Assembly (NCBI GenBank): GCA_963755715.1
Contig: CAVWLW010000068.1
Span: 32,001 to 96,000 of the forward strand
DNA: 64,000 nucleotides
From: an uncultured delta proteobacterium
GTDB taxonomy: Bacteria; Desulfobacterota; Binatia; UBA9968
Direction: 5' to 3'
Shown: piece by piece, positions 25,408-58,162 of the stretch
How the letters are laid out: every line of letters starts with the position of its first letter
Numbering within the stretch: position 1 is the first letter of the stretch
Translations under genes and position numbers: made by a program
Notes under the pieces: generated by a model
Seen by the model: only the letters and a program-made list of their open reading frames with translations
Databases searched by the model: none
What the model was told of the DNA's origin: nothing

Positions 25408-25768
25408 GCTGTGGCACGTGATCTTGCTTGCGGCGCTGTTGGCGACGCTCGGCCAAAGCAGATTTTTGGACCCGACGGCACTAGTCGCCGGCGGCATTTT
25501 CATGGGCGTCAATTTTCTCCTGTTGGCGTATGGCATCGCCTGGATATTGAGGCCGCTAGCTGGAAAAGGGCGAGTCAAAACAGGTGTCAGTTTACTGATT
25601 TTGAAGATTGCTATTTTTTTGGGACTGTTATCGACGTTGTTTTTTCGTTTTAATCTTGACGCGGTCTCGTTTGCCGCAGGCTTTTCGACCTTGATCATCG
25701 CGATTATTCTGGAAACGCTTCGCACGGCCGTAAAGGTAGGGACATCGAGCAATGGAACATCCGTTTAG
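25370..25768 (+). CDS. atpI: ATP synthase protein I
   Basis: Four-TM hydrophobic ORF overlapping the atpB start. Confidence 0.72.
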   Translation: MEAAARKMILRIELWHVILLAALLATLGQSRFLDPTALVAGGIFMGVNFLLLAYGIAWILRPLAGKGRVKTGVSLLILKIAIFLGLLSTLFFRFNLDAVSFAAGFSTLIIAIILETLRTAVKVGTSSNGTSV

Positions 25769-26537
25769 TTGGCATAACTTGCTGCCGGAGGGATGGCAGC
25801 ATTCGATCGGCGATCACACTTTCTTCGCGATCGTATCAGCAATTCTATTGATCCTCTTCGCACTTAAAGCTCGTGGCGCTTTGGCCAAAGCCAGCGATCC
25901 GGTGATTCCGCCGGCAGAGCTCGGCACGCAGAACATCGCTGAGCTGTTGGTTCAACTGGTGGTCAGCCAAAGCGATCAAATCATCGGCAAGCAGGGGCGA
26001 AAATACGTTCCGTTCTTCGCGACCTTTTTCTTTTTCATTCTGTTCAGCAACTTGATGGGACTTCTGCCCGGCTTTGCCGCGCCCACAGGCAATCTCAACA
26101 CCACCATCGGATTGGCGCTCTGCTCTTTCATTGGCTACAACGTTATTGGAATACGCGAACAAGGGGCGAGCTACTTCAAGCACTTCGTCGGTCCGATGAC
26201 CAGTCTGCCCGGTAGCAGCTTGATCGCTAAATTGGCTTTCGTGCCGGTGCTGTTAATTTCCGTCTGCTTTTTTCTAATCTTAGAGCTTTTCTCTCATGGA
26301 TTTCGGCCGGTTTCTCTGTCATTGCGTCTATTCGGCAACATGATGGGCGACCATGAGGTTATCGGAGCGTTCATTGGCTTGACCAAACTGGTGATCCCAG
26401 TGGCGTTTTACGCCATGGGAACATTGGTTTCGATAATTCAGGCCTTTGTTTTTACATTGCTGAGCATGATCTACGTCGCCCTGGCGATCAGCCACGGCCA
26501 CGACGAAGAACCCGGACACGAAGCGCATCAATCTTAA
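25752..26537 (+). CDS. atpB: F0F1 ATP synthase subunit a
   Basis: NLMGLLPG, PTGNLN, RPVSLSLRLFGNM and IQAFVFTLLSMIY. Confidence 0.97.
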   Translation: MEHPFSWHNLLPEGWQHSIGDHTFFAIVSAILLILFALKARGALAKASDPVIPPAELGTQNIAELLVQLVVSQSDQIIGKQGRKYVPFFATFFFFILFSNLMGLLPGFAAPTGNLNTTIGLALCSFIGYNVIGIREQGASYFKHFVGPMTSLPGSSLIAKLAFVPVLLISVCFFLILELFSHGFRPVSLSLRLFGNMMGDHEVIGAFIGLTKLVIPVAFYAMGTLVSIIQAFVFTLLSMIYVALAISHGHDEEPGHEAHQS

Positions 26538-26632
26538 CATGCACATCAAGCACATCATTAAGCGATGGGCCGCCGTTGCGAGGATGAGGATAGAGGAGTG
26601 GCAGGCATAAGTCGCTGGAAAGGAGGAAGGAA

Positions 26633-26959
26633 ATGAAAAAGCTGTTTTCGCTCTTGAGCTCTTTTGGCATAACCCTTCTCAGTGTTGGGGTAGCCGTGGC
26701 GGCTGAAGGCGCAACTGCCGGGGGTGGTGATTCCACCAAGGCGGCCATTGCCCTTGCCGCTGGGCTTGGCGTTGCCATCGCCGCATTCGGCGCGGCGCTC
26801 GGTCAGGGTCGCGTCGGCGCGGCCGCGATGGAAAGCATCGGGCGCAATCCCAATGCCGCCGATCGGCTGTTTCTGCCGCTGGTTCTGAGCCTTGCGCTCC
26901 TTGAAGCGTTGGCGCTTTACGGCTTCGTTATCGCGATTATCTTGACCGGTAAGATTTAA
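26633..26959 (+). CDS. atpE: F0F1 ATP synthase subunit c
   Basis: GAALGQG, GRNP and LEALALY; SD AAGGAGGAAGG; signal-peptide-like N-terminal extension. Confidence 0.96.
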   Translation: MKKLFSLLSSFGITLLSVGVAVAAEGATAGGGDSTKAAIALAAGLGVAIAAFGAALGQGRVGAAAMESIGRNPNAADRLFLPLVLSLALLEALALYGFVIAIILTGKI

Positions 26960-26979
26960 CGGGCTGTTTAAAGACTGCA

Positions 26980-27013
26980 AAAAGGGCGGGAAGAGAATTC
27001 TTTCCGCCCTTTT
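26980..27013. terminator. Bidirectional intrinsic terminator
   Basis: aaaagggcgggaag-agaatt-ctttccgccctttt between convergent genes. Confidence 0.8.
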
Positions 27014-27015
27014 CT

Positions 27016-27477
27016 TTATCTTCCCGGCAATTCTACTTTGTGCAGATGTACCTGGGTGTAACGGAGCAATTCCTCCAGAGTGGGCAACTTATAGGGCTTC
27101 TCGTAGTAAATCTCTTTGATGCCCGTGTTGACCAAAACTTTGAGGCAGTGGATGCAAGGCGTGTGGGTGATGTAGATCGCGCCGTCTTTGATGCTGGCGC
27201 CGTTCTTCGCCGCCTGAGCGATGGCGTTCATCTCCGCATGAATGGTGCGAAAACAGTTTTGCTCCGTATCGCCGTTAGGCGTTTTTGATTCGTAAACGAG
27301 ACAGCCGACATCGGTGCAATGGGGCATTCCCGCCGGCGCGCCATTGTAACCGGTGGCGAGGATATTTTTATCGCGCACGATGACCGCGCCGACCTTCGCC
27401 CGGCTACAAGTGGAGCGCTCGGCCACCTGTTGGGTGATGGTCATGAAGTATTGGTCCCAGCTCAACCGTTCACTCAT
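27016..27477 (-). CDS. dCMP deaminase / ComEB family
   Basis: SWDQYFM, RSTC, GYNG, HAEMNA and PCIHC. Confidence 0.92.
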   Translation of the reverse strand: MSERLSWDQYFMTITQQVAERSTCSRAKVGAVIVRDKNILATGYNGAPAGMPHCTDVGCLVYESKTPNGDTEQNCFRTIHAEMNAIAQAAKNGASIKDGAIYITHTPCIHCLKVLVNTGIKEIYYEKPYKLPTLEELLRYTQVHLHKVELPGR

Positions 27478-44186: not shown

Positions 44187-44347
44187 CTATGGCAGTTCTC
44201 CCGCTCGGTTTAATCGTAAAAAAGCTAATCACGAAGACCATCACTGTCAAGGCTTGCTATTCTAAATTCTCCTTTTATTTTAATTAGTTGTCTGGTTTAA
44301 AAAAAAATGTTACGGTGGCAAGAGTCAGTTCCGCAAATGATTCGCTT

Positions 44348-45122
44348 ATGCGACCGAGTCATGTCACCGCCGCAATTGTACTGCGTCATCGGCCTTTTGG
44401 GGAGTCTGATAAAATAATCTCATTTTTGACGGAGGACTTTGGCAAACTTACCGGCATTGCCAAAGGAGCAATGCGGTCGCGCAAGCGGTTCGTAAATTCT
44501 TTGGAACCGTTTGCCTTAGTGAACCTTCGCTTTCACGACCGTCCGCACAGTAGCTTGGCGTTTATTCTAGCAGCGGATACTGGTTACGAGTTTTAGCAAG
44601 CTGCTCAATAGCCTGGAACGAATTTCTTACGCCTCGTACTTGGTTGAAATTACCGATGGATTGGTCGGCGAACGGGAAGAAAATGGCGAGATTTATCGCC
44701 ACCTAAGGGACGGACTGAGTTTTCTCGAACAAAATGAAACGTCGCTTCGATTTCTCACGGCCTTCGAGTTAAAACTTTTGCGCCTAGTCGGCTACCAGCC
44801 GTTTTTGGACAACTGCAAAGGATGTCGCAGTGTTCTCGACGAGGCCAGATCCCAATGGCATTTCAGTCCGATCGATGGCGGCATACTCTGCGAATCCTGT
44901 GCGCGTGCACGCAAGCAGATTCTGCCGCTTGGGGCGACGGCGGTAGAAGTGCTAACCGCATTACAGATGGAAACTGAACTCTCCCGCGTATCGCTGCCGC
45001 GGTCGGTCATACATGAAATTCGCGCGGCGCTGCTGGGTTTTATACAGTTTCAAATGGATCGAGAAATCAAATCGGCAGCTTTTTTATCCGCCTTTTCTGC
45101 CGCGGAATCCGACACGACTTAG
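44348..45122 (+). CDS. recO: DNA repair protein RecO (+1 frameshift at 44579)
   Basis: AIVLR..FGESDKI and AKGA.RSRKRF; after removing A44579 the frame continues to FELKLL..GY.P..C..C...GGILC..C. Confidence 0.9.
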
Positions 45123-48014: not shown

Positions 48015-49742
48015 ATGGAACCACGTTTTGCGGAATTGTTGGTAAAGGGAGGCGTAGTAACCCGCGAGCAGCTCACGGAAGCGCAAAAAAAAGAAAGAGA
48101 GAACGCTTCCAGTATCATTAAAGAAGTCGTTCGACTGGGGTATTCGAGCGAAGAAATCTTAAGCGCATTTCTCGCCAAACAATTTGGCATTGAAACCGCG
48201 GAACTCGTTCCCGGCGAAATTGAAGACGCGGTATTTGCCTTAGTCCCGCCGCAGATAATTCAGAAGCATCAGTTGGTCCCTTATAAACTTTTCGGCTCGA
48301 CTCTTACCGTCGCCATGTCCGACCCGACGGATCTGGTCGCGATCAACGAAGTCAAATTCGTGACCGGTTACGGTGTGCGCGTCGTGCTGGTGACCCCATC
48401 GAATATCAAAAAGATGCTGGATCACCGCTTTGGCGGGGTGAGTTATGACGATGTGCTGAAAAAGTTCGGTGACGGCGAGATGGAGGTCGTCCAGGAGAGT
48501 GACGATGTAAACCTCCAGGAGTTGCAACAAGCCACCATGGACGCGCCCGTGGTGACCCTGGTCAACGCAATTCTTGCCGATGCGGCAAAACGCCGCTGCA
48601 GCGATATTCATATCGAGCCCTACGAAAAAATCTTTCGGGTTCGGTTTCGCATCGACGGCGTGCTGCAGGAAATCATGAGTCCGCCGCTGCGGCTGAAAAA
48701 TGCTCTGGTGTCGCGCTTAAAAGTCATGGCTGGTTTGGATATCGCGGAGCGGCGGCTGACCCAAGACGGCCGCATCAAGCTCAAAATGGGCATGGGCGGT
48801 GAATTGGACGTTCGTGTTTCCATCCTGCCCACCTTGTTCGGCGAGAAAGTCGTGATGCGCTTGTTGGATAAGTCCAATCTGCAACTCGACATGGCCAAGT
48901 TGGGTTTTGATCCGCAGAATTTGAAAGATTTCCACGAGGCGATTCATAAGCCTTATGGGATGATTCTGATTACGGGTCCGACCGGAAGCGGCAAGTCGAC
49001 CACGCTTTATTCCGCTCTATCGGATCTCAACAAGCCTGATGTAAACATTTCCACCGCTGAAGATCCGGTGGAATACAATTTGGTGGGAATTAATCAAGTT
49101 CAGGTTAGAGAACAAATAGGCCTCAATTTCGCTGCCTGTCTGCGTTCATTCCTTCGCCAAGACCCAGATATCATCATGGTTGGCGAAATTCGTGACCTCG
49201 AAACGGCGCAGATCGCTATTAAAGCCGCTTTGACGGGCCATCTGGTCTTGAGCACGCTCCATACCAATGACTGCCCGGCGACTGTGGATCGCTTGATCAA
49301 CATGGGAACCGAACCGTTTCTTTTGACGTCGTCGATCAACATAATCCTAGCCCAACGGTTAGTGCGGAAAATATGCGATCAATGCAAAGAGCCAATTGAA
49401 ATAAAACCGGAGGTTTTGATTAACCTCGGCATCGATGCTGCGGAGGTAGGCGCAGGTTTTCCAACTTTTCACGGTCGAGGCTGCAACAATTGCGGCGGTA
49501 CGGGGTATCGGGGCCGATTAGCGGTGTATGAGGTCATGGTGATGCGTGAAGAGCTCAAAGAAATGATCTTGAAAGCAGCCTCAGCCATGGAACTTAAGCG
49601 TGAGGCCGTCAAACTCGGCATGAGCACGCTGCGCATGAGTGCATTGCAAAAGGTGCGCGAGGGCCTGACCACCGTCGACGAGACTATTCGGGTTACCGAC
49701 AACGATAAAGGTTTCGGTTCGGTTTTTTCGCTTGGATTCTAA
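48015..49742 (+). CDS. pilB: Type IV pilus assembly ATPase PilB
   Basis: SDIHIEP, LDIAERR..QDG, GPTGSGKSTTLY, EDPVE, LRQDPD, STLHTND and a tetracysteine motif. Confidence 0.96.
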   Translation: MEPRFAELLVKGGVVTREQLTEAQKKERENASSIIKEVVRLGYSSEEILSAFLAKQFGIETAELVPGEIEDAVFALVPPQIIQKHQLVPYKLFGSTLTVAMSDPTDLVAINEVKFVTGYGVRVVLVTPSNIKKMLDHRFGGVSYDDVLKKFGDGEMEVVQESDDVNLQELQQATMDAPVVTLVNAILADAAKRRCSDIHIEPYEKIFRVRFRIDGVLQEIMSPPLRLKNALVSRLKVMAGLDIAERRLTQDGRIKLKMGMGGELDVRVSILPTLFGEKVVMRLLDKSNLQLDMAKLGFDPQNLKDFHEAIHKPYGMILITGPTGSGKSTTLYSALSDLNKPDVNISTAEDPVEYNLVGINQVQVREQIGLNFAACLRSFLRQDPDIIMVGEIRDLETAQIAIKAALTGHLVLSTLHTNDCPATVDRLINMGTEPFLLTSSINIILAQRLVRKICDQCKEPIEIKPEVLINLGIDAAEVGAGFPTFHGRGCNNCGGTGYRGRLAVYEVMVMREELKEMILKAASAMELKREAVKLGMSTLRMSALQKVREGLTTVDETIRVTDNDKGFGSVFSLGF

Positions 49743-49836
49743 AGCGAATGGGGTGATCGGCCGCATGCGCATAGATCAATTATTTTTTACGTGTTCGCGA
49801 TGAAATCGATTTATTAGCAAGTTAACGGAAGAGGTT

Positions 49837-51063
49837 ATGGCGACATTTGTTTGGGAAGGCCGAACGGCCCAAGGAAGGGTGGTTAAAGGTGACAATCTCG
49901 AGGCGCCGAGTTTGGAGGCCGCACTCGCCCGCCTCCGCGAGCAGCGCATTCGACCGATTGCCAACCGCGTTAAAGAAAAGGGCAAAGGATTCGACAAAGA
50001 GATCTCGATACCCGGCTTTGGCGACAAGGTCACGACGAAGGATCTCTCCCTAGCTACCCGGCAATTGGCCACCATGATCGATGCCGGTTTGCCAATCGTG
50101 CAGTGCTTAGACATTTTGGCGGAACAATCGGAGAGCAAGCTTCTGCGCACTACGATAGGTACCATTAAAAAGGATGTTGAGGGAGGCTGCACGCTCGCGG
50201 ACGCTCTAAGAAAGCACCCCAAGATCTTCGATGACCTTTACGTGAACATGGTCGAGGCCGGTGAAGCCGGCGGTATTTTGAACACGATCCTAAATCGGAT
50301 TGCGTTGTTCATCGAAAAAGCCAACCGACTGAAGAAAAAAGTCAAAGGCGCCATGATCTATCCTTGCGCGATCGTCGGCGTCGCGGTGATCGTGGTCGCG
50401 GTCTTGATGATTTTCGTTATCCCCGTCTTTGCCGAGCTTTACGGCAGTATGGGAAAAGCTCTTCCAGCACCGACTCAGATTTGTATCAATATCAGCAACT
50501 GGTTCGTTGCCTACTGGTATGTGCTCGTGGCCGGCATAGCCGGCATCATTAGCGGCACTTCCTTTTACTACAAGACGCCGCACGGCCGCATGAAAATCGA
50601 TGGGATCATGCTCCGGATGCCGATCATCGGCGATCTTTTGCGCAAAGTAGCCGTGGCGCGTTTTTCACAGAACATGGCGCTGCTGCTGAGTTCCGGCGTC
50701 CCGATTCTCGATGGTCTGGCGATTACCGGCAGGACCGCAGGCAATAAAGTCGTTGAAAAAGCAATCATGGAGAGCCGCATAAGCATCAGCCAAGGTAAAA
50801 CCGTTGCCGAACCACTGCGTGACAGCAAAATTTTTCCGCCTCTGGTCTGTCAGATGGTGGCGGTCGGCGAAAGTACCGGTGGGCTCGATACGATGCTCAA
50901 GAAAGTAGCCGAGCTTTATGAAGAAGAAGTCGACGACGCGGTCAACAACCTAACGGCAATGATGGAACCGATGATCATGATCGTTCTCGGTGTCGTGCTG
51001 GGCGGCCTAGTCATCGCCATGTATCTGCCGATATTCCAGATGGGTTCATTAGTCGGCGGATGA
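49837..51063 (+). CDS. pilC: Type IV pilus platform protein PilC
   Basis: TRQLATMIDAGLP, EAGEAGG, KVKGAMIYP, VGESTG.LD and MYLPIF. Confidence 0.96.
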   Translation: MATFVWEGRTAQGRVVKGDNLEAPSLEAALARLREQRIRPIANRVKEKGKGFDKEISIPGFGDKVTTKDLSLATRQLATMIDAGLPIVQCLDILAEQSESKLLRTTIGTIKKDVEGGCTLADALRKHPKIFDDLYVNMVEAGEAGGILNTILNRIALFIEKANRLKKKVKGAMIYPCAIVGVAVIVVAVLMIFVIPVFAELYGSMGKALPAPTQICINISNWFVAYWYVLVAGIAGIISGTSFYYKTPHGRMKIDGIMLRMPIIGDLLRKVAVARFSQNMALLLSSGVPILDGLAITGRTAGNKVVEKAIMESRISISQGKTVAEPLRDSKIFPPLVCQMVAVGESTGGLDTMLKKVAELYEEEVDDAVNNLTAMMEPMIMIVLGVVLGGLVIAMYLPIFQMGSLVGG

Positions 51064-51116
51064 TTCGAATAGCGTTCGATACCAACAGGTGAAAGACCGG
51101 CACGAGACGCGCTTTC

Positions 51117-53159
51117 GTGAATGATGAAAACAAAAAATTGACGGAAAAGATCCGCTGGCTGCTGCTGCTGCGGGTAGTGATTCTATCTTTTTTTCTAGGC
51201 GCGACGGCGCTGTTTCATTTCTTTGGAACAGAAGGAGACGTGGCCTATCTGATCAGTCTCTCCATCCCGCTGGTCCTCGCCTACGTCATATCGATTATTT
51301 CCGTCGCTGTCTTGCCCAAAGTAGGCAGCTTGCGCCTATTCGCCCACGCACAAGTCTGCTTCGACGTCATTCTGATCACCGGCATCATCTGGATCACCGG
51401 AGACATCGCCAGCCCGTTCTCGGTTCTTTATAACCTCGCCGTCATGAACGGCGCGATTTTGCTTTTTTATCGCGGTGCGTTTTTTACCGCGGCGTGCTCA
51501 AGCCTGTCCTATTCGGGATTGCTCCTCTGGTCGCGCTTTCTCAATTCGGGCCAGGGAACGCCGCTTACGTGGTCGACCCTCATCCCGATCGTGCTGAGCA
51601 TCAGCAGTTTCTTCGTGATCGCATGGCTCAGCGGCTTTCTGGCCAATAAACTGAGCGAGACCGAACAACTGCTAAAAGAAAAGCAAATCGACTACCAAGA
51701 GTTGGATGCGTTCAAGGACGCGCTGTTACAAGGAATCGGTAGCGGCGTGGCAATCACCGATCCCGATGGACGAATCAACTATTTCAATCAGCAGGCGCAA
51801 GCGCTGACCATGCTCGATGAAGCGAACCTAAAGGGCAAGCGGCTCGATCAAGTCTTCCCGGGTTTGAGCTATGACTTTCAACGCAATCGCAGCGCCGGTG
51901 CGCTCGTGACGGATGAATTGGCTCTTGCCAATTCCTCGACTCAGGGTGCAGCCAAACAGATTCGCCTGACGCTTGCGCCGCTCAATAATTTGAACGGCCA
52001 ACCGATTGGCTTTCTTTCGATCTTCGAAGACATCACTCGACAAAAACAAATAGAAGAAAAAGTACGGCTAGAGGAAGAACTGCGCAGGGGAAGGGAAGTT
52101 GAATTGAACCAGACCTCACCTGCGAGGGATAACCCCGAGTTTCACTTTGAAGGCGTGATCGGTAAAAGCGGTGGAATCGAAAAAATCTATCACCTGATCC
52201 AGAAGGTTGCGGCCAGCAGCACAAATATTCTGATCTCCGGTGAGAGTGGCACCGGCAAAGAGTTGGTGGCGCGCGCGATCCATCTAAACGGGCCGCGCCA
52301 CGGCAAACCGTTCATCGCCGTCAATTGTGGCGCGATTCCGGAGAACCTTATTGAAAGCGAGCTCTTCGGACATGTGCGTGGCGCTTTTACCGGCGCCGTA
52401 TCGGATCACACCGGACTCTTCAAGCAGGCCGACCAGGGAACGATTTTTTTAGATGAGGTCGGTGAGTTGCCGCTCCACCTTCAAGTCAAGCTGTTGCGAG
52501 TTCTCCAGGAAAAGAGTTTCACTCCCGTCGGCGGCAGCAAACCGATCAAGGTCGACGTGCGAGTGATTTCGGCCACTAACCGGGAATTGCGCAAGGAACT
52601 CGAAGAAGGACGATTTCGCGAAGATTTGTTTTATCGCCTGAACGTCGTCCAGATGGTCATGCCGCCACTGCGCACCAGAAAGGAAGATATCTCCGCTCTC
52701 GCACACTACTTCTTGCGGAAGTTTGCCGCCTCTCATGACAAAAAGGTCGAAGAAATTTCTAGCGGCGCCCTGATGCAACTGATGAATCACACCTACCCGG
52801 GAAACGTACGGGAGCTCGAAAATATCATTGAGCATGCTGTTGCGGTGACCAATAAGAATATTCTGGCGGAAGAGGATTTGCCGCAACATATTAAGAGCCT
52901 GCCGCTTGGCGAAGAAGTGGATCTATTCGAGAAAACCGCGCCCGGTGGCGCGGACCTATTTTTTAGCAAAGGCTTGTCGTTAGACGTGGAGCTCGAAACC
53001 CATGAAAAGTGTATTTTGCTAGGGGCGCTGAAGCGCGCCAACGGCGTGCAGAAAAGGGCCGCTGAGATCCTTGGTATTAACTATCGATCGCTCCGTCATC
53101 GTCTGGAAAAATACGATCTACTCAATTCTAAAAGCGATTCCCCCAGCGACCAGCAGTAA
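51117..53159 (+). CDS. Membrane-anchored sigma-54 activator: PilS-like TM sensor + PAS fused to PilR-like AAA+/HTH (no kinase, no receiver)
   Basis: About 6 TM helices with PilS-like DVILITGIIWITG..SPFS.LY; PAS (aa ~200-307, ending FEDIT); ~36-aa linker; GESGTGKE, ESELFGH..GAFTGA, FLDEV, FREDLFYRL, YPGNVREL and Fis-type HTH AAEILGINYRSLRHRL. Confidence 0.88.
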   Translation: MNDENKKLTEKIRWLLLLRVVILSFFLGATALFHFFGTEGDVAYLISLSIPLVLAYVISIISVAVLPKVGSLRLFAHAQVCFDVILITGIIWITGDIASPFSVLYNLAVMNGAILLFYRGAFFTAACSSLSYSGLLLWSRFLNSGQGTPLTWSTLIPIVLSISSFFVIAWLSGFLANKLSETEQLLKEKQIDYQELDAFKDALLQGIGSGVAITDPDGRINYFNQQAQALTMLDEANLKGKRLDQVFPGLSYDFQRNRSAGALVTDELALANSSTQGAAKQIRLTLAPLNNLNGQPIGFLSIFEDITRQKQIEEKVRLEEELRRGREVELNQTSPARDNPEFHFEGVIGKSGGIEKIYHLIQKVAASSTNILISGESGTGKELVARAIHLNGPRHGKPFIAVNCGAIPENLIESELFGHVRGAFTGAVSDHTGLFKQADQGTIFLDEVGELPLHLQVKLLRVLQEKSFTPVGGSKPIKVDVRVISATNRELRKELEEGRFREDLFYRLNVVQMVMPPLRTRKEDISALAHYFLRKFAASHDKKVEEISSGALMQLMNHTYPGNVRELENIIEHAVAVTNKNILAEEDLPQHIKSLPLGEEVDLFEKTAPGGADLFFSKGLSLDVELETHEKCILLGALKRANGVQKRAAEILGINYRSLRHRLEKYDLLNSKSDSPSDQQ

Positions 53160-53174
53160 CAAAATTTGTCACTT
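53156..53174. promoter_or_regulatory. Candidate upstream activator sequence for the pilA promoter
   Basis: Dyad GTAACAAA-A-TTTGTCAC (one mismatch), about 185-200 bp upstream of the -24 element. Confidence 0.55.
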
Positions 53175-53354
53175 GGCTCGCTGGCAAAATTCCGTAATAC
53201 CAAAGTTTAAATTTTGCGTGGTGTTTGCCAGGCGCCACAAGATCGAGCTGATATAGGGAGCAACTTGCTAAAAGATAAAGGCTTTGGTCATGGCTAGGAG
53301 ATTTATCGATGTGCCGATTGTGGCCGTTATATGACAGGAGTAGGCGAATTTATT

Positions 53355-53371
53355 CTGGCCCTGCTTTTGCT
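53355..53371 (+). promoter_or_regulatory. Sigma-54 (-24/-12) promoter of pilA
   Basis: CTGGCCCTGCTTTTGCT: GG (53357-58), N10, GC (53369-70); located between a bEBP gene and pilA. Confidence 0.82.
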
Positions 53372-53544
53372 CGCTAGGCGTTGCAACGTTTCAGTCGAAA
53401 ATACGACATCGACACCCAAAGGAGGTGACGCATCATAAGCATGCAGATCAGAAGAGCATTGGACATCGAACGCAGGTAGTTAGTTTAGAAGAAGTCACTA
53501 ATAGAGATTACAAACAACCTAATAATAGAAGGGAGTATTGGTAG

Positions 53545-53943
53545 ATGAATAGACTAAGATTACAGAACGAATCGGGGTTCACCCTGATTGAGTTGTTGGT
53601 TGTCGTTGCCATCATTGGTATCTTGGCGGCCATCGCGATTCCTCAGTTTGCGGCATATAGAAAGCGTGGTCATGAGGCGCAGGTCAAGTCTGACTTGAGA
53701 AATGCAGCGGTGGCCGAGGAAGCGTATTTTGCAGCTCAATCTGCGTACAAATCATCTTCTTCTGCATGGACCGGTGGTGCATCGCCGACCGTCCCGGGTT
53801 TCAACGCCACCACTGGAGTAGCTGTATTTTCGGTGGCTGGAACCAACACGTTTTTGCTGACAGCGACGCACGCGAACTGCGGTACCAATGTCTGGACTTT
53901 CAGTAGCGGTAACGGCACGATTAGTGGTAGCGCTTGTCCATAA
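53545..53943 (+). CDS. pilA: Type IVa major pilin
   Basis: Class III leader MNRLRLQNESG|FTLIELLVVVAIIGILAAIAIPQF, with E5 and P22; C-terminal Cys pair; own terminator. Confidence 0.93.
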   Translation: MNRLRLQNESGFTLIELLVVVAIIGILAAIAIPQFAAYRKRGHEAQVKSDLRNAAVAEEAYFAAQSAYKSSSSAWTGGASPTVPGFNATTGVAVFSVAGTNTFLLTATHANCGTNVWTFSSGNGTISGSACP

Positions 53944-53980
53944 GCGGCAAATACATCGGGTAACCCGATTATCGGGATTC

Positions 53981-54013
53981 AAAAAAGGGGGCCACGCTAG
54001 GCCCCTTTTTTTT
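53981..54013 (+). terminator. Intrinsic terminator after pilA
   Basis: aaaaaagggggcc-acgcta-ggcccc followed by T8. Confidence 0.88.
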
Positions 54014-54071
54014 CAGCTTTAAAAAATCATACGACGAGGTCAATTCCCACCAATTTTATAGGTCACAAGAC

Positions 54072-56717
54072 GTGCTCGAGAGTCGTAAATCCGTTAGAGA
54101 AGAATTTCTTGCCATCGCAGCCCTATCGGCAATGGTGATCTGGTTTTGCGACGAGATGATTTTCTCGCAAAAAATCCCATTCTTTCGCGACCTGGTCACA
54201 TATTTTTATCCGATTAAATTCAGCGTTGCGGAAGCCTTCAAAGCTGGCTCACTACCTATGTGGGACCAGCATATGGCAACGGGTTTTCCAATCATGGCCG
54301 AGTTTCAATCAGCGGTGTTTTATCCGCCCAGCATCGCCTTTTATCTCCTACCGTTTTTTACGGCCGTACGGTTTATCTTCGTTTTTCATTACGCCATTGC
54401 CGCGATCGGTTCCTACATTCTGTTCCGATCATGGAAATCACCAGTATATGTTGCTCTTATTGGAGCCGTCCTGTTTGCCTTTGGCGGCACGATGGTTTCG
54501 CTGACAAATTTATTAAATCATTTTCAAAGCGCGGTTTGGTTACCCTGGATTATCTATTTCTGGGAAAGCGCGGTTAGAGACAAGCGAGCAAGAAATGTTG
54601 CCATTTTCACGATTATTGCGCTTTGCCAATTACTCGCGGGATCGCCCGAGATATTCTTGCTTTCCATTGGATTGGCACTGCTTGATGCCATTCGGCTCCA
54701 TCGCGAAGATCAAAGCCACGGCTTGTTTCGGGCAACGATTGTACTATTGGGGTCGGGATTCGTGATTATGGGGCTCGGCATGGTTCAACTGTTGCCGACC
54801 GCTGAGCTTGTAATGCAATCCCGTCGCGACCAACCGATCCCGGTCGCCGAAGCGCTCGCGTGGTCTTTACAGCCGTCAAGCTTGATCGGGCTTTTGTTAC
54901 CCACCCTCGAAGCTGACTCGTCCCTATCGGTCGGTGTTCGGTTGTTACTTACGGACGGAGTGCCTTTTCTCCTTAGCCACTATATCGGCGTCATCGGAAT
55001 TTTGGGCTTGTGTTGTTGGTTCAAGGCTGCACGAACAAAAGAGCGCGTTATCATAACGGGACTAATCGGGCTCTCGTTGGTACTGGCGTTCGGAAGCTAT
55101 ACACCGATCTACGCGTCTCTCTACGACGCGATACCTGTACTACGTGTCATGCGTTTTCCCGAAAAATATTTCTATTTAACCTTTGCAATCTTGGTATTCA
55201 CGATCGTTCGCGGATTATCTCAGACGACGGACGCGAAAAATTCTCGGATGTGCTGGGTCTTTGCGTCCTCAATGCTTGTCCTATGGCTCGTTGTTTATGT
55301 AATTTTTCGATCACAACCAGAGTTACTCGCAAAATTTCTTTATTCTCTGAACACTCACCGACGTGCGGGCGAAGTCACCCCTGCGACAGTAGCGGCCATC
55401 CTGGTGGTCCTAGAAAAACAAATTGCCGTCTCTTTGGTTTTGTCATTGCTATTTTGCCTAAACCGTTACGGAATTTTGCGCGTAACATTGTTTCAACCTT
55501 TGCTCGTTTTATCGGTGTTTCTCGATCTGAGCTCTGCTAATAAACCGCTGCATTTTCTGCGGGACGAAAAGCTTGTCCAAAACGTAGCGCGAGTTATGGA
55601 AAAACCGCCCGTCGATCACGGCCGCTTTTTCTATTACCCACCGTCAAATAATCTACACCCTAGTTTCATGAGAGTAAGCGGCAATCTGACTTACGATAAG
55701 GCAACAGAGATTGCGCTAAATAATTTACTGCCCAATGCCGGCATGTTGTACGGTTTTGAATATTTTCAAGATATAGACGCGCTTGGCCGCCGCAGCTACA
55801 CCGATTTTCTGAATTTCATCAATTCTCTGCCAACCGACCGACGGGGCAAACTGCTGCGCGCCGTAAACGTGAAACATGTCGTGGCGTTTCATTCATTGGA
55901 AGTGAAAGGTCTGGAGCTTGTCGGAGAATTTCCCGAACATTACTCCAAGCTATACGAGGTCACCGATGCGGTGCCGCGAGCTTATGTTGCGGCGCGCGCG
56001 ATCTATGATCTGGACCCGAAGAGCACTTTGGAGCGGATGTCCAGCGACAGCTTCGATCCGCTGCGAGACGTGGTACTCGACGTGCCGATTCATTTGGAGA
56101 CGAAAGGTATTTTTCATGGTGAAGCGGCGATCAAACTTTACGAAAACAATCGCGTGCAGATTAACGCCCAGCTTAGCGAACCCGGTGTCCTCGTGTTAAC
56201 CGATGCATTTCATCCGGGATGGAAGGTTTTTGTCGATGGTAAAGAACAAACAATTCGACGCGCCAACTATCTGTTTCGCGCCGTAGAATTGCCAGCCGGG
56301 AATCACCGAGTGGAGTTCGTCTACGATCCCATTTCATTCAAACTCGGCTTGGTTATCTCATCGCTGACTGCGGCTTTATTCATCACAATACCCCTGGTTG
56401 GTTGGCTTCGCCGGCGGGCCGCTTTTACACAATCTCGCAGTGCATTTTCGCCATCGCCAGTGTCGCTCAATTGCGGATCGTTCGGGCTAGCTATGGCTCG
56501 GCTGTTTAGGAACTATTTTCTAATGTGGTCAGGCTTAGCCGCCGCTTTGAACTCAAAAACGGAAACCAAAGGGACACCCGCAAGATCGATCGCTAGAAAT
56601 GGCTTAGTTGGCGAGCTGATTAGACGCCTTTCCCTTGGTGCCAAGCACACTTCGGCGATGGAGTATAATGTAATAATTAAAGCTTTGGCCGTCGGTGAGT
56701 TTGATATCGGGCCGTAA
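54072..56717 (+). CDS. YfhO-family multi-TM protein (putative GT-C glycosyltransferase); true stop probably ~56490
   Basis: FFRD...YFYP, LPMWD....GFP.....QSAVFYPP and QLLPT.EL; C-terminal LVLTDAFHPGWKVFVDG...RANYLFRAV..PAG.H.VEFVY. The tail overlaps the convergent gene, suggesting a late frameshift. Confidence 0.8.
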   Translation: MLESRKSVREEFLAIAALSAMVIWFCDEMIFSQKIPFFRDLVTYFYPIKFSVAEAFKAGSLPMWDQHMATGFPIMAEFQSAVFYPPSIAFYLLPFFTAVRFIFVFHYAIAAIGSYILFRSWKSPVYVALIGAVLFAFGGTMVSLTNLLNHFQSAVWLPWIIYFWESAVRDKRARNVAIFTIIALCQLLAGSPEIFLLSIGLALLDAIRLHREDQSHGLFRATIVLLGSGFVIMGLGMVQLLPTAELVMQSRRDQPIPVAEALAWSLQPSSLIGLLLPTLEADSSLSVGVRLLLTDGVPFLLSHYIGVIGILGLCCWFKAARTKERVIITGLIGLSLVLAFGSYTPIYASLYDAIPVLRVMRFPEKYFYLTFAILVFTIVRGLSQTTDAKNSRMCWVFASSMLVLWLVVYVIFRSQPELLAKFLYSLNTHRRAGEVTPATVAAILVVLEKQIAVSLVLSLLFCLNRYGILRVTLFQPLLVLSVFLDLSSANKPLHFLRDEKLVQNVARVMEKPPVDHGRFFYYPPSNNLHPSFMRVSGNLTYDKATEIALNNLLPNAGMLYGFEYFQDIDALGRRSYTDFLNFINSLPTDRRGKLLRAVNVKHVVAFHSLEVKGLELVGEFPEHYSKLYEVTDAVPRAYVAARAIYDLDPKSTLERMSSDSFDPLRDVVLDVPIHLETKGIFHGEAAIKLYENNRVQINAQLSEPGVLVLTDAFHPGWKVFVDGKEQTIRRANYLFRAVELPAGNHRVEFVYDPISFKLGLVISSLTAALFITIPLVGWLRRRAAFTQSRSAFSPSPVSLNCGSFGLAMARLFRNYFLMWSGLAAALNSKTETKGTPARSIARNGLVGELIRRLSLGAKHTSAMEYNVIIKALAVGEFDIGP

Positions 56718-58162
56718 ACGTCCTTCTTTTTGATAAATGCTGAACATGAAATTGGCTACCGATGCATTCACGCTTGCGTTCATTGGTAGTTTGTCATTGA
56801 GCGCGCGCAAGAAGTTGGGCGTGATGGCTTCCATAAAGTAAGTCGTCTCCAGTCCACGCTCATACGCACCACGGATACCGCCAACAAACCGGTTATAAAA
56901 ACTAAGTTGAAACGGGTGACACAGGTAGACATCCAACACAGGACTGAAGCAAGCCAGTAGAACGAAGATACCGGCAACTTTTGTCTTCAGTCTGGTAATT
57001 TGCATCGGCACATGCCGGTTTCGGAAAAAACTCATCGACCAAGCTGAGCATAGTGTGAAAACCCACTCCTGCCAAAGCTGCAATGAAAGGTAGCACTGAG
57101 AGCATCTGCCGGACGCCATCGTGAAGGACGGCACCGGGCATAAGGCCCAAACCCAGGATGAAAGTTGCATGGAAAAAAAATAGGAGGGCGACGGACCAAT
57201 GCTCTTTTCTCAAAGTAATTGAGAGGGTGCCTAACAAGGCCAGCGCGATGAACGGTTCGGGTGTGGTGACGCCGATCATGAAAAACGAGTAGTACCAAGG
57301 CAGCTGATGCGTAAAATAAAGTTGGTTGAAAAAATAGATCATGAAGTTTGCGTCTGGCCGATACGCACGGCTGATACCTTCATACAAAAACTCCAAAATT
57401 CGCAAACCGGTTTGATGCCAAAGGTAGGGTTGCGTGCCGATCATGACAATCGGTGCAATAAAGAGCAGCGCAAAGACATTGTTCACATACTTGTCCCGGT
57501 GAAACAGATGCGCCCACAGAATCAGAGGAACCGGAATGAGCACCGCAGGAAATTTGGTGGCGAGCGCCAAGCCCCATAGGACACCGAGCACGACACTCCA
57601 CTTCCAGTTGCTGAGACCTTTCCAAAAGGCAAAGACTGTCAGGAACCACATTGAAGCCAGCGGTAGATCGGTGACCGCGAAATGCGCGTAGCCAAACAGG
57701 TTGGGCGTCAGGATGACGCTCAAGGCCGAAAACAAACCTGTAGCCCTGCCGAAAAGCTCCTTCATCCAAAGAAACATCACCGTAACGAGCAGGGCGAAAA
57801 AAAGCGCCGGCCCGATGCGATACGCTGAAAACTTGTCTACAGATTGTGGCGAGATATCCTTAGCAAATCCCGAAATAATCCGCGAAAACGGCGGATGGGG
57901 TACGTTGTACGGATTCCAATGCCAAGCGGCCTGGATGGTTTGATCGTCGAGGCTCTTTCGATAACTCGCCGTAGGTCAGGTTATCCACGAAACCGCGGAT
58001 CCACCGCACATGGAGATCGGATGCGTGAAAATAGGGGGGCTCGTCCCACGTTACTCCATAATCTTTTGCTGTCGCACCAATGAGCAGCAGAGTTCCGAAG
58101 AACAAAACAAACGGTATCAGCCAACGTGTTGTTCGAGATTCGAGGGATATCGTTTCATTCAT
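56513..58162 (-). CDS. GT-C (PMT/ArnT-like) membrane glycosyltransferase, three +1 frameshifts (~57957, ~57027, ~56640)
   Basis: DYGVTWDEP.Y, HPPF, HFAVTDLP, GLALATKF, LPWYY and LHDGVR are split over four frame segments. Confidence 0.78.

Follow-up and report, generated by a model that had tools for sequence, protein, structure and literature searches.

A PilS-type membrane sensor joined in frame to a PilR-type sigma-54 activator beside the pilin gene in Binatia

How is pilin transcription controlled when the place of the two-component system PilS-PilR is taken by a single gene? The question is raised by a 64,000-nucleotide (nt) stretch of DNA from an uncultured bacterium of the class Binatia, phylum Desulfobacterota (GenBank assembly GCA_963755715.1, contig CAVWLW010000068.1, positions 32,001 to 96,000), referred to here as the window and numbered from its first letter. 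In it, one open reading frame (ORF) of 680 amino acids (aa) lies between pilC and the pilin gene pilA, that is, in the pilS-pilR position; the neighbouring genes confirm this placement, which had been claimed in a preliminary description made from the sequence without database searches. PilS-PilR is the textbook case of pilin autoregulation, and how its six-helix module transmits the pilin signal remains unclear, so a natural form without kinase, phosphatase, or receiver is of interest as it uncouples sensing from phosphotransfer. We confirm that the fused gene is real and conserved and that it is PilS-PilR cut to one membrane-bound component. The gene and its parts (Pfam matches with expect values, E) are as follows.

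51117..53159, + strand: fused pilS-pilR gene for a 680-aa one-component membrane sigma-54 activator (ORF with GTG start; Pfam)
51123..51671, + strand: 6TM_PilS sensor module, aa 3-185 (PF25323, E 5.9e-19; score 68.9 bits, cut-off 27)
51714..52046, + strand: PAS domain, aa 200-310, ending in FEDIT (PAS_4, PAS, and PAS_9; beta strands at 210-305 in the structure model)
52038..52160, + strand: junction and linker, aa 308-348 (alignment against PilS and PilR, linker census, bridging DNA contig)
52155..52898, + strand: sigma-54 AAA+ domain and lid, aa 347-594 (PF00158, aa 347-513, E 2.1e-72; PF25601)
52992..53114, + strand: Fis-type helix-turn-helix (HTH) domain HTH_8, aa 626-666 (PF02954, E 8.9e-11)

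By Pfam, the domain order is 6TM-PAS-AAA+-HTH_8, with AAA_lid_14 at aa 519 to 594, and no match to HisKA, HATPase_c, or Response_reg was found in the 680-aa protein at E ≤ 0.1. The motifs lie at aa 303 to 307 (FEDIT), 308 to 332 (the charged stretch RQKQIEEKVRLEEELRRGREVELNQ), 375 to 382 (GESGTGKE), and 422 to 427 (GAFTGA). Pfam and the translation therefore agree with the preliminary description, both in the combination of transmembrane (TM), PAS, and bacterial enhancer-binding protein (bEBP) parts with these motifs and in the lack of a HisKA H-box, a HATPase, and a receiver (REC) domain. Since HisKA, HATPase_c, and the receiver are all missing, kinase/phosphatase switching is impossible as a mechanism. 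The genome of the window has a single 6TM_PilS match. NCBIfam models align with the activator part only or with PAS plus activator, and the best of them, PrdR, TyrR, and DhaR, run PAS-AAA+-HTH. Solved structures match the bEBP core only, from about aa 313, and none spans the membrane and PAS part. An AlphaFold model (mean predicted local distance difference test score, pLDDT, 77.9; predicted template-modelling score, pTM, 0.40) has helices at residues 2-37, 42-68, 72-94, 100-142, and 152-206 in the membrane module, which thus extends to residue 206, followed by a PAS fold, one more helix (307-330), a low-confidence stretch, and the AAA+ domain; the arrangement of the domains in this model is uncertain.

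Both halves resemble the corresponding partner of the two-component system, as had been claimed. A search of aa 1 to 340 against 1.84 billion representatives gave 14,910 matches at E ≤ 0.001. Among the best 150 of these, at least 101 are proteins of about 530 to 620 aa that share about 30% identity over aa 5 to 323 and continue into a kinase core (one, P0146, is 6TM_PilS-PAS-HisKA-HATPase_c by Pfam), and a further nine are complete fused proteins that share all five domains. The separate trees of the two halves, which the preliminary description had suggested as a check against PilS and PilR, group them accordingly. In the tree of the N-terminal half, the 49 proteins of the class group together as a clade among PilS kinases (support 98). 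In that of the C-terminal half, the fused proteins and the PilR proteins encoded next to PilS form a clade (support 99), with 23 bEBP paralogs from the window's own genome outside it; seven further own-genome paralogs with short alignments were left out of this tree, and when all 30 were included in a tree of the AAA+ core, none fell inside the clade (support 67). The class clade has a support of 100 in the concatenated tree.

The same architecture occurs in many independent data sets. A word-indexed protein search gave 8000 scored matches, of which 120 were listed, from NCBI, JGI, ENA, and Logan assemblies; all 120 (77 to 100% identity, 609 to 720 aa) carry PF25323, PF00158, and PF02954, and none of these listed matches has a kinase or receiver family. 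Sixteen species-level genome loci are 64 to 80% identical to the fused gene, some of them on contigs of 1 to 2 Mb. At the DNA level, 14 runs from seven studies contain 72% or more of the words sampled from 51000-53950, and a rhizosphere DNA contig (run X3, record 30) aligns over 51408-52390 with nine differences and neither gap nor joint, and so crosses the PAS-to-AAA+ junction. The search for full-length homologs with the same junction in independent genomes thus succeeded, in these 16 loci and in 56 class genomes.

These class genomes come from a sample of 151 Binatia genomes, 60 of which match the sensor half. We examined all 57 genomes other than the window's own that match TM plus PAS; the remaining two have weak PAS matches only. 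The activator is joined behind TM plus PAS in 56 of the 57, including four copies interrupted by a frameshift or stop (genomes G319, G211, G329, and G334) and three that reach a contig end (loci L056, L101, and L106). In G227, the one genome without a joined activator seen, the contig ends before the decision point, and a kinase behind TM plus PAS was found in none of the 57. The fused form spans at least 10 families of Binatia, and the order of pilC followed by the fused gene is kept in the class loci examined. Two loci, L113 (G217:C53) and L114 (G295:C56), have a histidine kinase away from pilC with a membrane part that weakly matches aa 9-186; these kinases look like a separate paralog.

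Outside the class, the two-component form prevails. In a sample of the phylum, 157 of 201 genomes match, mostly with ORFs of 540 to 600 aa. Eighteen non-class genomes were examined, and 15 have a PilS of the 6TM-PAS-HisKA-HATPase type while three have a fused protein (G026, G020, and G036), a count skewed toward fusions because seven of the 18 were chosen for long frames. A PilR of the REC-AAA+-HTH type adjoins PilS in 10 of the 15, which are all those whose stretch includes the neighbouring gene. The classical gene order there is pilC-pilS-pilR-pilA, with pilR-pilS-pilA in some. Pfam confirms the five-domain architecture in nine divergent representatives and in the three fused proteins outside the class. 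A 677-aa Atlas cluster labelled Bdellovibrionota is a candidate look-alike.

The point at which the two proteins meet can be located rather precisely. FEDIT followed by KQIEEKVRLEEEL in the fused protein aligns with FQDLT followed by KEMEE.VRR.ERLA in PilS, just before the H-box, and the fused protein departs from the PilS alignment immediately ahead of the H-box AHEIRNPL. On the other side, F.FEGVIGKS corresponds to the PilR segment directly N-terminal to the AAA+ domain. The junction therefore reads as a PilS-type signalling helix, a variable low-confidence stretch, and the F.FEGVIG segment. In the window's family, the linker is 41 aa long in 24 of 29 loci and contains a conserved charged helix of 21 residues; locus L074 retains a PilR-type linker, LKKDLKKRYNLENIIG, and that of protein P0208 is only 13 aa. 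The most economical origin would be an in-frame deletion running from the 3' half of pilS to the 5' part of pilR in adjacent genes.

It is likely, but not established, that the fused form has arisen several times. In free trees, the fused proteins from outside the class fall among classical PilS and PilR, and the starred branches force at least two label changes; the breakpoints of these proteins differ as well, as the linkers of L074 and P0208 show. A single clade of all fused proteins is nevertheless not rejected by the approximately unbiased (AU) test for the C-terminal half (p = 0.232) or in a comparison of 25 fused proteins with eight concatenated classical pairs (p = 0.25), the fused group in both tests having been named after the trees had been seen. 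Searches for relatives of G026, G020, and G036 returned those genomes alone, each of which is the sole member of its class in the sample, and the L074 protein is a near-orphan whose next match has 45% identity.

The fused proteins bear the marks of retained function. In 41 aligned sequences, down to 41% identity, the Walker A motif GESGTGKE, the Walker B residues DE, and several arginines are invariant, as are G422, T425, G426, and A427 of GAFTGA, with A423 and F424 kept in at least 90%. Compared with 12 relatives, the nonsynonymous divergence (dN) is 0.04 to 0.48 and the synonymous divergence (dS) is saturated; dN/dS is at most 0.2 wherever computable, whether for the membrane module, PAS, AAA+, or HTH, and 0.06 to 0.20 in the TM part. 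All domains are under strong purifying selection. The membrane module also keeps the polar and glycine signature of the kinases: between 49 class proteins and 116 PilS kinases, conservation is 100 and 100% for R19, 98 and 98% for Q79, 96 and 96% for D83, and 100 and 96% for S99. R24 of PilS and E5 and P22 of pilin are reported to be important for the contact between the two proteins, in a paper on Nps/Npa of Neisseria that cites Kilmury and Burrows 2016 (PMC6528607) and in PMC6058289. The mature pilin encoded in the window begins FTLIEL and has both E5 and P22 by translation.

Downstream of the fused gene, the following features lead into the pilin gene.

53156..53172, no strand assigned: palindrome GTAACAAAATTTGTCAC, a probable PilR-type activator box (overlaps the stop codon; conserved in at least 80% of 18 family loci)
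53356..53371, + strand: predicted sigma-54 -24/-12 promoter TGGCCCTGCTTTTGCT (consensus match; predicted start near 53382)
53545..53943, + strand: pilA, type IVa major pilin of 132 aa (N_methyl, E 1.8e-9; translation)

The -24/-12 match, TGGCCCTGCTTTTGC at 53356-53370, has one mismatch to the consensus and is one of five one-mismatch matches on both strands of the window. It lies 197 nt 3' of the fused-gene stop, which agrees with the promoter that had been placed about 200 bp downstream ahead of pilA, and it is conserved: GG-N10-GC is present in 32 of 33 intergenic regions between fused gene and pilin gene, at least nine of 11 consensus positions are matched in 25 of the 33, and TGGCC and TTGC are invariant when the intergenic regions of 18 family members are aligned.

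The palindrome, about 190 bp 5' of the promoter, has the family form GT(A/G)ACAAA-n-TTTGTCAC, which 17 of 20 family loci match exactly or with a single mismatch. An exact-pattern search of 31 family genomes gave eight matches, five of them at the end of the fused gene, and two with the reversed control. Other Binatia families have TTGAC-N(about 17)-GTCAA in its place, in two tandem copies in L074. Classical loci also carry a box of this kind 5' of a sigma-54 pilin promoter (GTGACAAAAATTGTCAC in L070; TGACAAATCCCGTCA in L077 and L078), and the fused protein therefore appears, as a prediction from sequence, to retain the DNA target of PilR. The TGAC/GTCA cores are about 7 to 9 bp apart in the window's family and about 17 to 20 bp apart in L047, L052, L053, L063, and L065, a difference of roughly one extra helical turn between the two Binatia groups. 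A second exact palindrome, TAACAAATTTTTGTCA, is located in the same genome at G000:C54:195670-195685 (locus L115, 3671-3686), about 295 nt 5' of the -24/-12-like sequence TGGCCGATATCTTGC and of a cheY-cheD-cheA-cheW operon. The regulator may have a further target here; the exact-pattern search found no palindrome before the chemosensory operon in 30 family genomes.

In RNA libraries of three studies, the pilin gene and its leader are represented by contigs (X17, 53337-53950 with one difference; X18, 53332-53517; X15, 53529-53669 and 53640-53950), and two from X15 lie on the regulator (51132-51276 and 51380-51622). Such contigs cover the stretch partially and neither prove transcription nor place its starts, so sigma-54-dependent initiation at pilA is a prediction from the -24/-12 element.

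Taken together, our results favour a reading, to which we give a probability of roughly 65%, of the gene as a one-component "PilSR" in which the 6TM and PAS sensor of PilS, fused in frame to the AAA+ and HTH parts of PilR, regulates pilA without phosphorylation. Pilin transcription would then probably be switched from the membrane in a phosphorylation-free manner. The fused protein would reside in the inner membrane, bind the palindrome, form an AAA+ ring, and remodel sigma-54 RNA polymerase for transcription of pilA, its activity being set by the PilS-type membrane module, most likely according to how much unassembled pilin the membrane holds, as reported for P. aeruginosa PilS. We infer this signal from homology to that PilS and from the conserved sensor residues. 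The target adjoins the regulator gene, and the promoter would hence stay reachable for a membrane-bound activator. A more far-reaching version, in which a class-wide collapse in Binatia was accompanied by a separate collapse, with other breakpoints, in at least one to three deep lineages, and in which membrane pilin gates the AAA+ ring on sigma-54 polymerase at a membrane-held promoter beside the regulator gene, is less likely than not.

Several observations weigh against the one-component reading. Across 51 fused proteins, the linker between PAS and AAA+ has a length of 13 to 44 aa; in several Binatia families other than the window's, it has a high content of proline and acidic residues, and residues 329 to 344 have a pLDDT below 50. 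With a linker so variable, a conserved rigid coiled coil is disfavoured, and with neither conservation nor model confidence, no defined allosteric path is evident. This weakens the coupling through PAS and a coiled coil that the preliminary description had proposed, and we favour control through the oligomeric state or through intramolecular repression of the AAA+ domain, rather than through a rigid signalling helix, since the linker is variable and partly disordered. NCBIfam gave no equivalog over its cut-off for the regulator, with scores far below it. We know of no characterised precedent among sigma-54 activators for an AAA+ hexamer with 36 membrane helices. The RNA-library contigs from two studies that end at 53332 and 53337 do so 45 to 50 nt 5' of the predicted start, at a place that the DNA run does not cover; these ends may reflect read-through, DNA carry-over, or another promoter. 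Finally, rpoN in the window's genome, found in the order lptB-rpoN-hpf-ptsN-rapZ with a Sigma54_DBD match of E 6.9e-63, reads in two frames, one of 209 aa (N-terminal region) and one of 333 aa (core-binding and DNA-binding regions). A small indel in the assembly is the probable cause of this split; were the frameshift genuine, any model based on sigma-54 would be undermined. The gene lies at about 25690-27170 on the - strand of G000:C34 (locus L084, 1483-2962).

The alternative that survives best keeps the same protein and the same target and removes pilin as the input. The membrane module would be an anchor, for example one that localises the activator near the pilus machine, and activity would be constitutive or set by a cytoplasmic ligand of PAS. 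PAS domains often bind small ligands, and the variable, partly disordered linker offers no obvious path from the membrane to the AAA+ domain. Pilin sensing by PilS has, moreover, been demonstrated in P. aeruginosa only, according to PMC6058289. A mere anchor would not need R19, Q79, D83, and S99, however, and their retention at the level seen in kinases therefore counts against it, as does the dN/dS of the TM part. We regard this alternative as unlikely.

It is improbable that the protein is instead a latent membrane precursor from which regulated proteolysis of the linker frees a soluble AAA+-HTH activator. Regulated proteolysis releases some membrane-tethered transcription factors, and a linker that is exposed, modelled with low confidence, and in several families proline-rich and acidic would suit it. 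Yet no cleavage motif is conserved across the linkers and no protease gene is conserved at the loci examined, which read pilC, fused gene, pilin; a freed activator of the NtrC1 type would also be constitutively active, a poor fit to homeostasis.

A two-component remnant in decay, without a role in pilin expression, would have a counterpart in the chimera Rsp of Neisseria gonorrhoeae, reportedly described by Carrick, Fyfe and Davies (2000, FEMS Microbiol Lett 186:197). According to PMC10269533, Rsp combines the membrane portion of PilS with the DNA-binding portion of PilR and represses pilin expression. PMC6528607 calls it an nps/npa fusion that has no evident part in transcribing pilE and presents it as a remnant peculiar to one species; in the pathogenic Neisseria, pilE is transcribed with RpoD. 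By these descriptions, Rsp stems from a fusion of neighbouring genes and joins the N terminus of PilS (Nps) and the C terminus of PilR (Npa) in one chain, as does the window protein, and it is a published but differently interpreted precedent. The idea is hence not wholly new, and the preliminary description, which knew of no earlier account of the architecture, is corrected on this point. Decay in Binatia is nonetheless very improbable. Besides Rsp, the interruption of four of the 56 fused class copies and the split rpoN speak for it, but pilC is also fragmented in two of these four (G329 and G334), and cheA as well as rpoN is split in the window assembly, as small indel errors would give. 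An architecture kept in at least 10 class families, with invariant catalytic motifs, with dN/dS of at most 0.2 in every domain against saturated dS, and with a conserved promoter and activator box is not what decay would leave. Compared with Rsp as described, the Binatia family is class-wide, under purifying selection, and coupled to a conserved sigma-54 promoter.

A collapsed assembly, in which about 1 kb of kinase and receiver sequence was lost at the junction, is refuted, although small indels do occur in the window assembly, by the presence of the same junction in at least 120 clusters of proteins drawn from assemblies of NCBI, JGI, ENA, and Logan, on Mb-size contigs, and in 56 class genomes and by the independent DNA contig across it; the junction does not belong to these small indels, as the preliminary description had held. 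The split of cheA into a frame with Hpt and dimerisation domains and one with HATPase and CheW (locus L115, 5012-6695, on C54 of the window genome) is a sign of such indels.

A one-component activator that senses pilin from the membrane, the reading that we prefer, can be set beside several known systems. With PilS-PilR, the closest of them, as in P. aeruginosa and in phylum loci L069, L077, and L082, the fused protein has in common the 6TM and PAS parts, the PilR-clade AAA+/HTH part, and the position. In the PilS-PilR loci of the phylum, the pilin gene is likewise preceded by a sigma-54 promoter and a palindromic box of the TGAC...GTCA kind. It differs in being without the HisKA H-box, HATPase_c, and the receiver with its aspartate and in that the activator is an integral membrane protein. 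The one-component sigma-54 activators NifA, DmpR/XylR, NorR, TyrR, and PrdR likewise have a sensory domain directly before AAA+ and work without phosphorylation. In these and in activators of the NtrC1/DctD type, the N-terminal module commonly represses ring assembly. To our knowledge, activators of the NifA, DmpR/XylR, NorR, TyrR, and PrdR type are soluble, and none is known with a polytopic membrane sensor. Regulators of the ToxR, CadC, and TcpP type (surveyed in PMC10269533) are, like the fused protein, single-component DNA-binding proteins of the membrane. They have an N-terminal winged helix, a single span, and a periplasmic sensor and work with sigma-70 polymerase. The fused protein has, in contrast, six N-terminal spans, a C-terminal AAA+ motor and HTH, and a predicted use of sigma-54. 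The words Fis, NtrC, and enhancer do not occur in the main text of that survey, and the part available of a paper on the Desulfovibrio vulgaris sigma-54 regulome makes no mention of membrane-bound activators. Full-text literature searches (supplements aside) found no description of a conserved functional fused family or of the Binatia proteins.

If the fused protein still answers to pilin, the membrane module and PAS suffice to relay the signal and are able to drive another output. The protein would also be a rare integral-membrane sigma-54 activator, which raises the questions of how membrane-anchored subunits build an AAA+ hexamer and how enhancer DNA gets to the membrane. It also documents the reduction of a two-component to a one-component system, long kept across a whole class of abundant soil bacteria, in contrast to the Neisseria fusion, which the available descriptions treat as a remnant.

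The remaining features of the locus are as follows.

48015..49742, + strand: pilB, type IV pilus assembly ATPase (TIGR02538, 731 bits against a cut-off of 675.65; Pfam T2SSE and MshEN)
49837..51063, + strand: pilC, platform protein, directly 5' of the fused regulator (Pfam T2SSF, two copies)
53190..53197, no strand assigned: box TTCCGTAA with partial conservation, reading TTACGTAA in certain relatives (the columns T, CG, and A reach at least 80% conservation in 18 regions)
53419..53428, + strand: Shine-Dalgarno-like box AAGGAGGTGA in the pilA leader (family alignment)
54072..56717, + strand: YfhO-like polytopic membrane protein, directly 3' of pilA (PF09586, E 1.7e-20)

The NCBIfam PilC models score 489 and 402 bits on pilC, both under the cut-off. 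The gap between pilB and pilC (49742-49837) is without pilT, and several related and classical loci have a PilT-like ATPase there. Upstream, a RecO C-terminal domain opens a separate ORF (44640-45122) in a frame other than that of the preceding ORF (44288-44596), and recO may have been split by an indel. In the alignment of 18 family regions, CAACGTTT is conserved at the predicted start region. The AAGGAGGTGA box is a perfect anti-16S box about 115 nt before the ribosome site of pilin itself; the family alignment has no conserved ORF behind it, and Rfam gave no match in 53100-54100. The box might serve in mRNA stabilisation or as a ribosome standby site. The YfhO-like protein, a possible pilin-modifying glycosyltransferase, is outside the regulator, and a fragment of a PMT_2-type glycosyltransferase lies at 56902-57780 on the - strand; the two proteins may glycosylate pilin.

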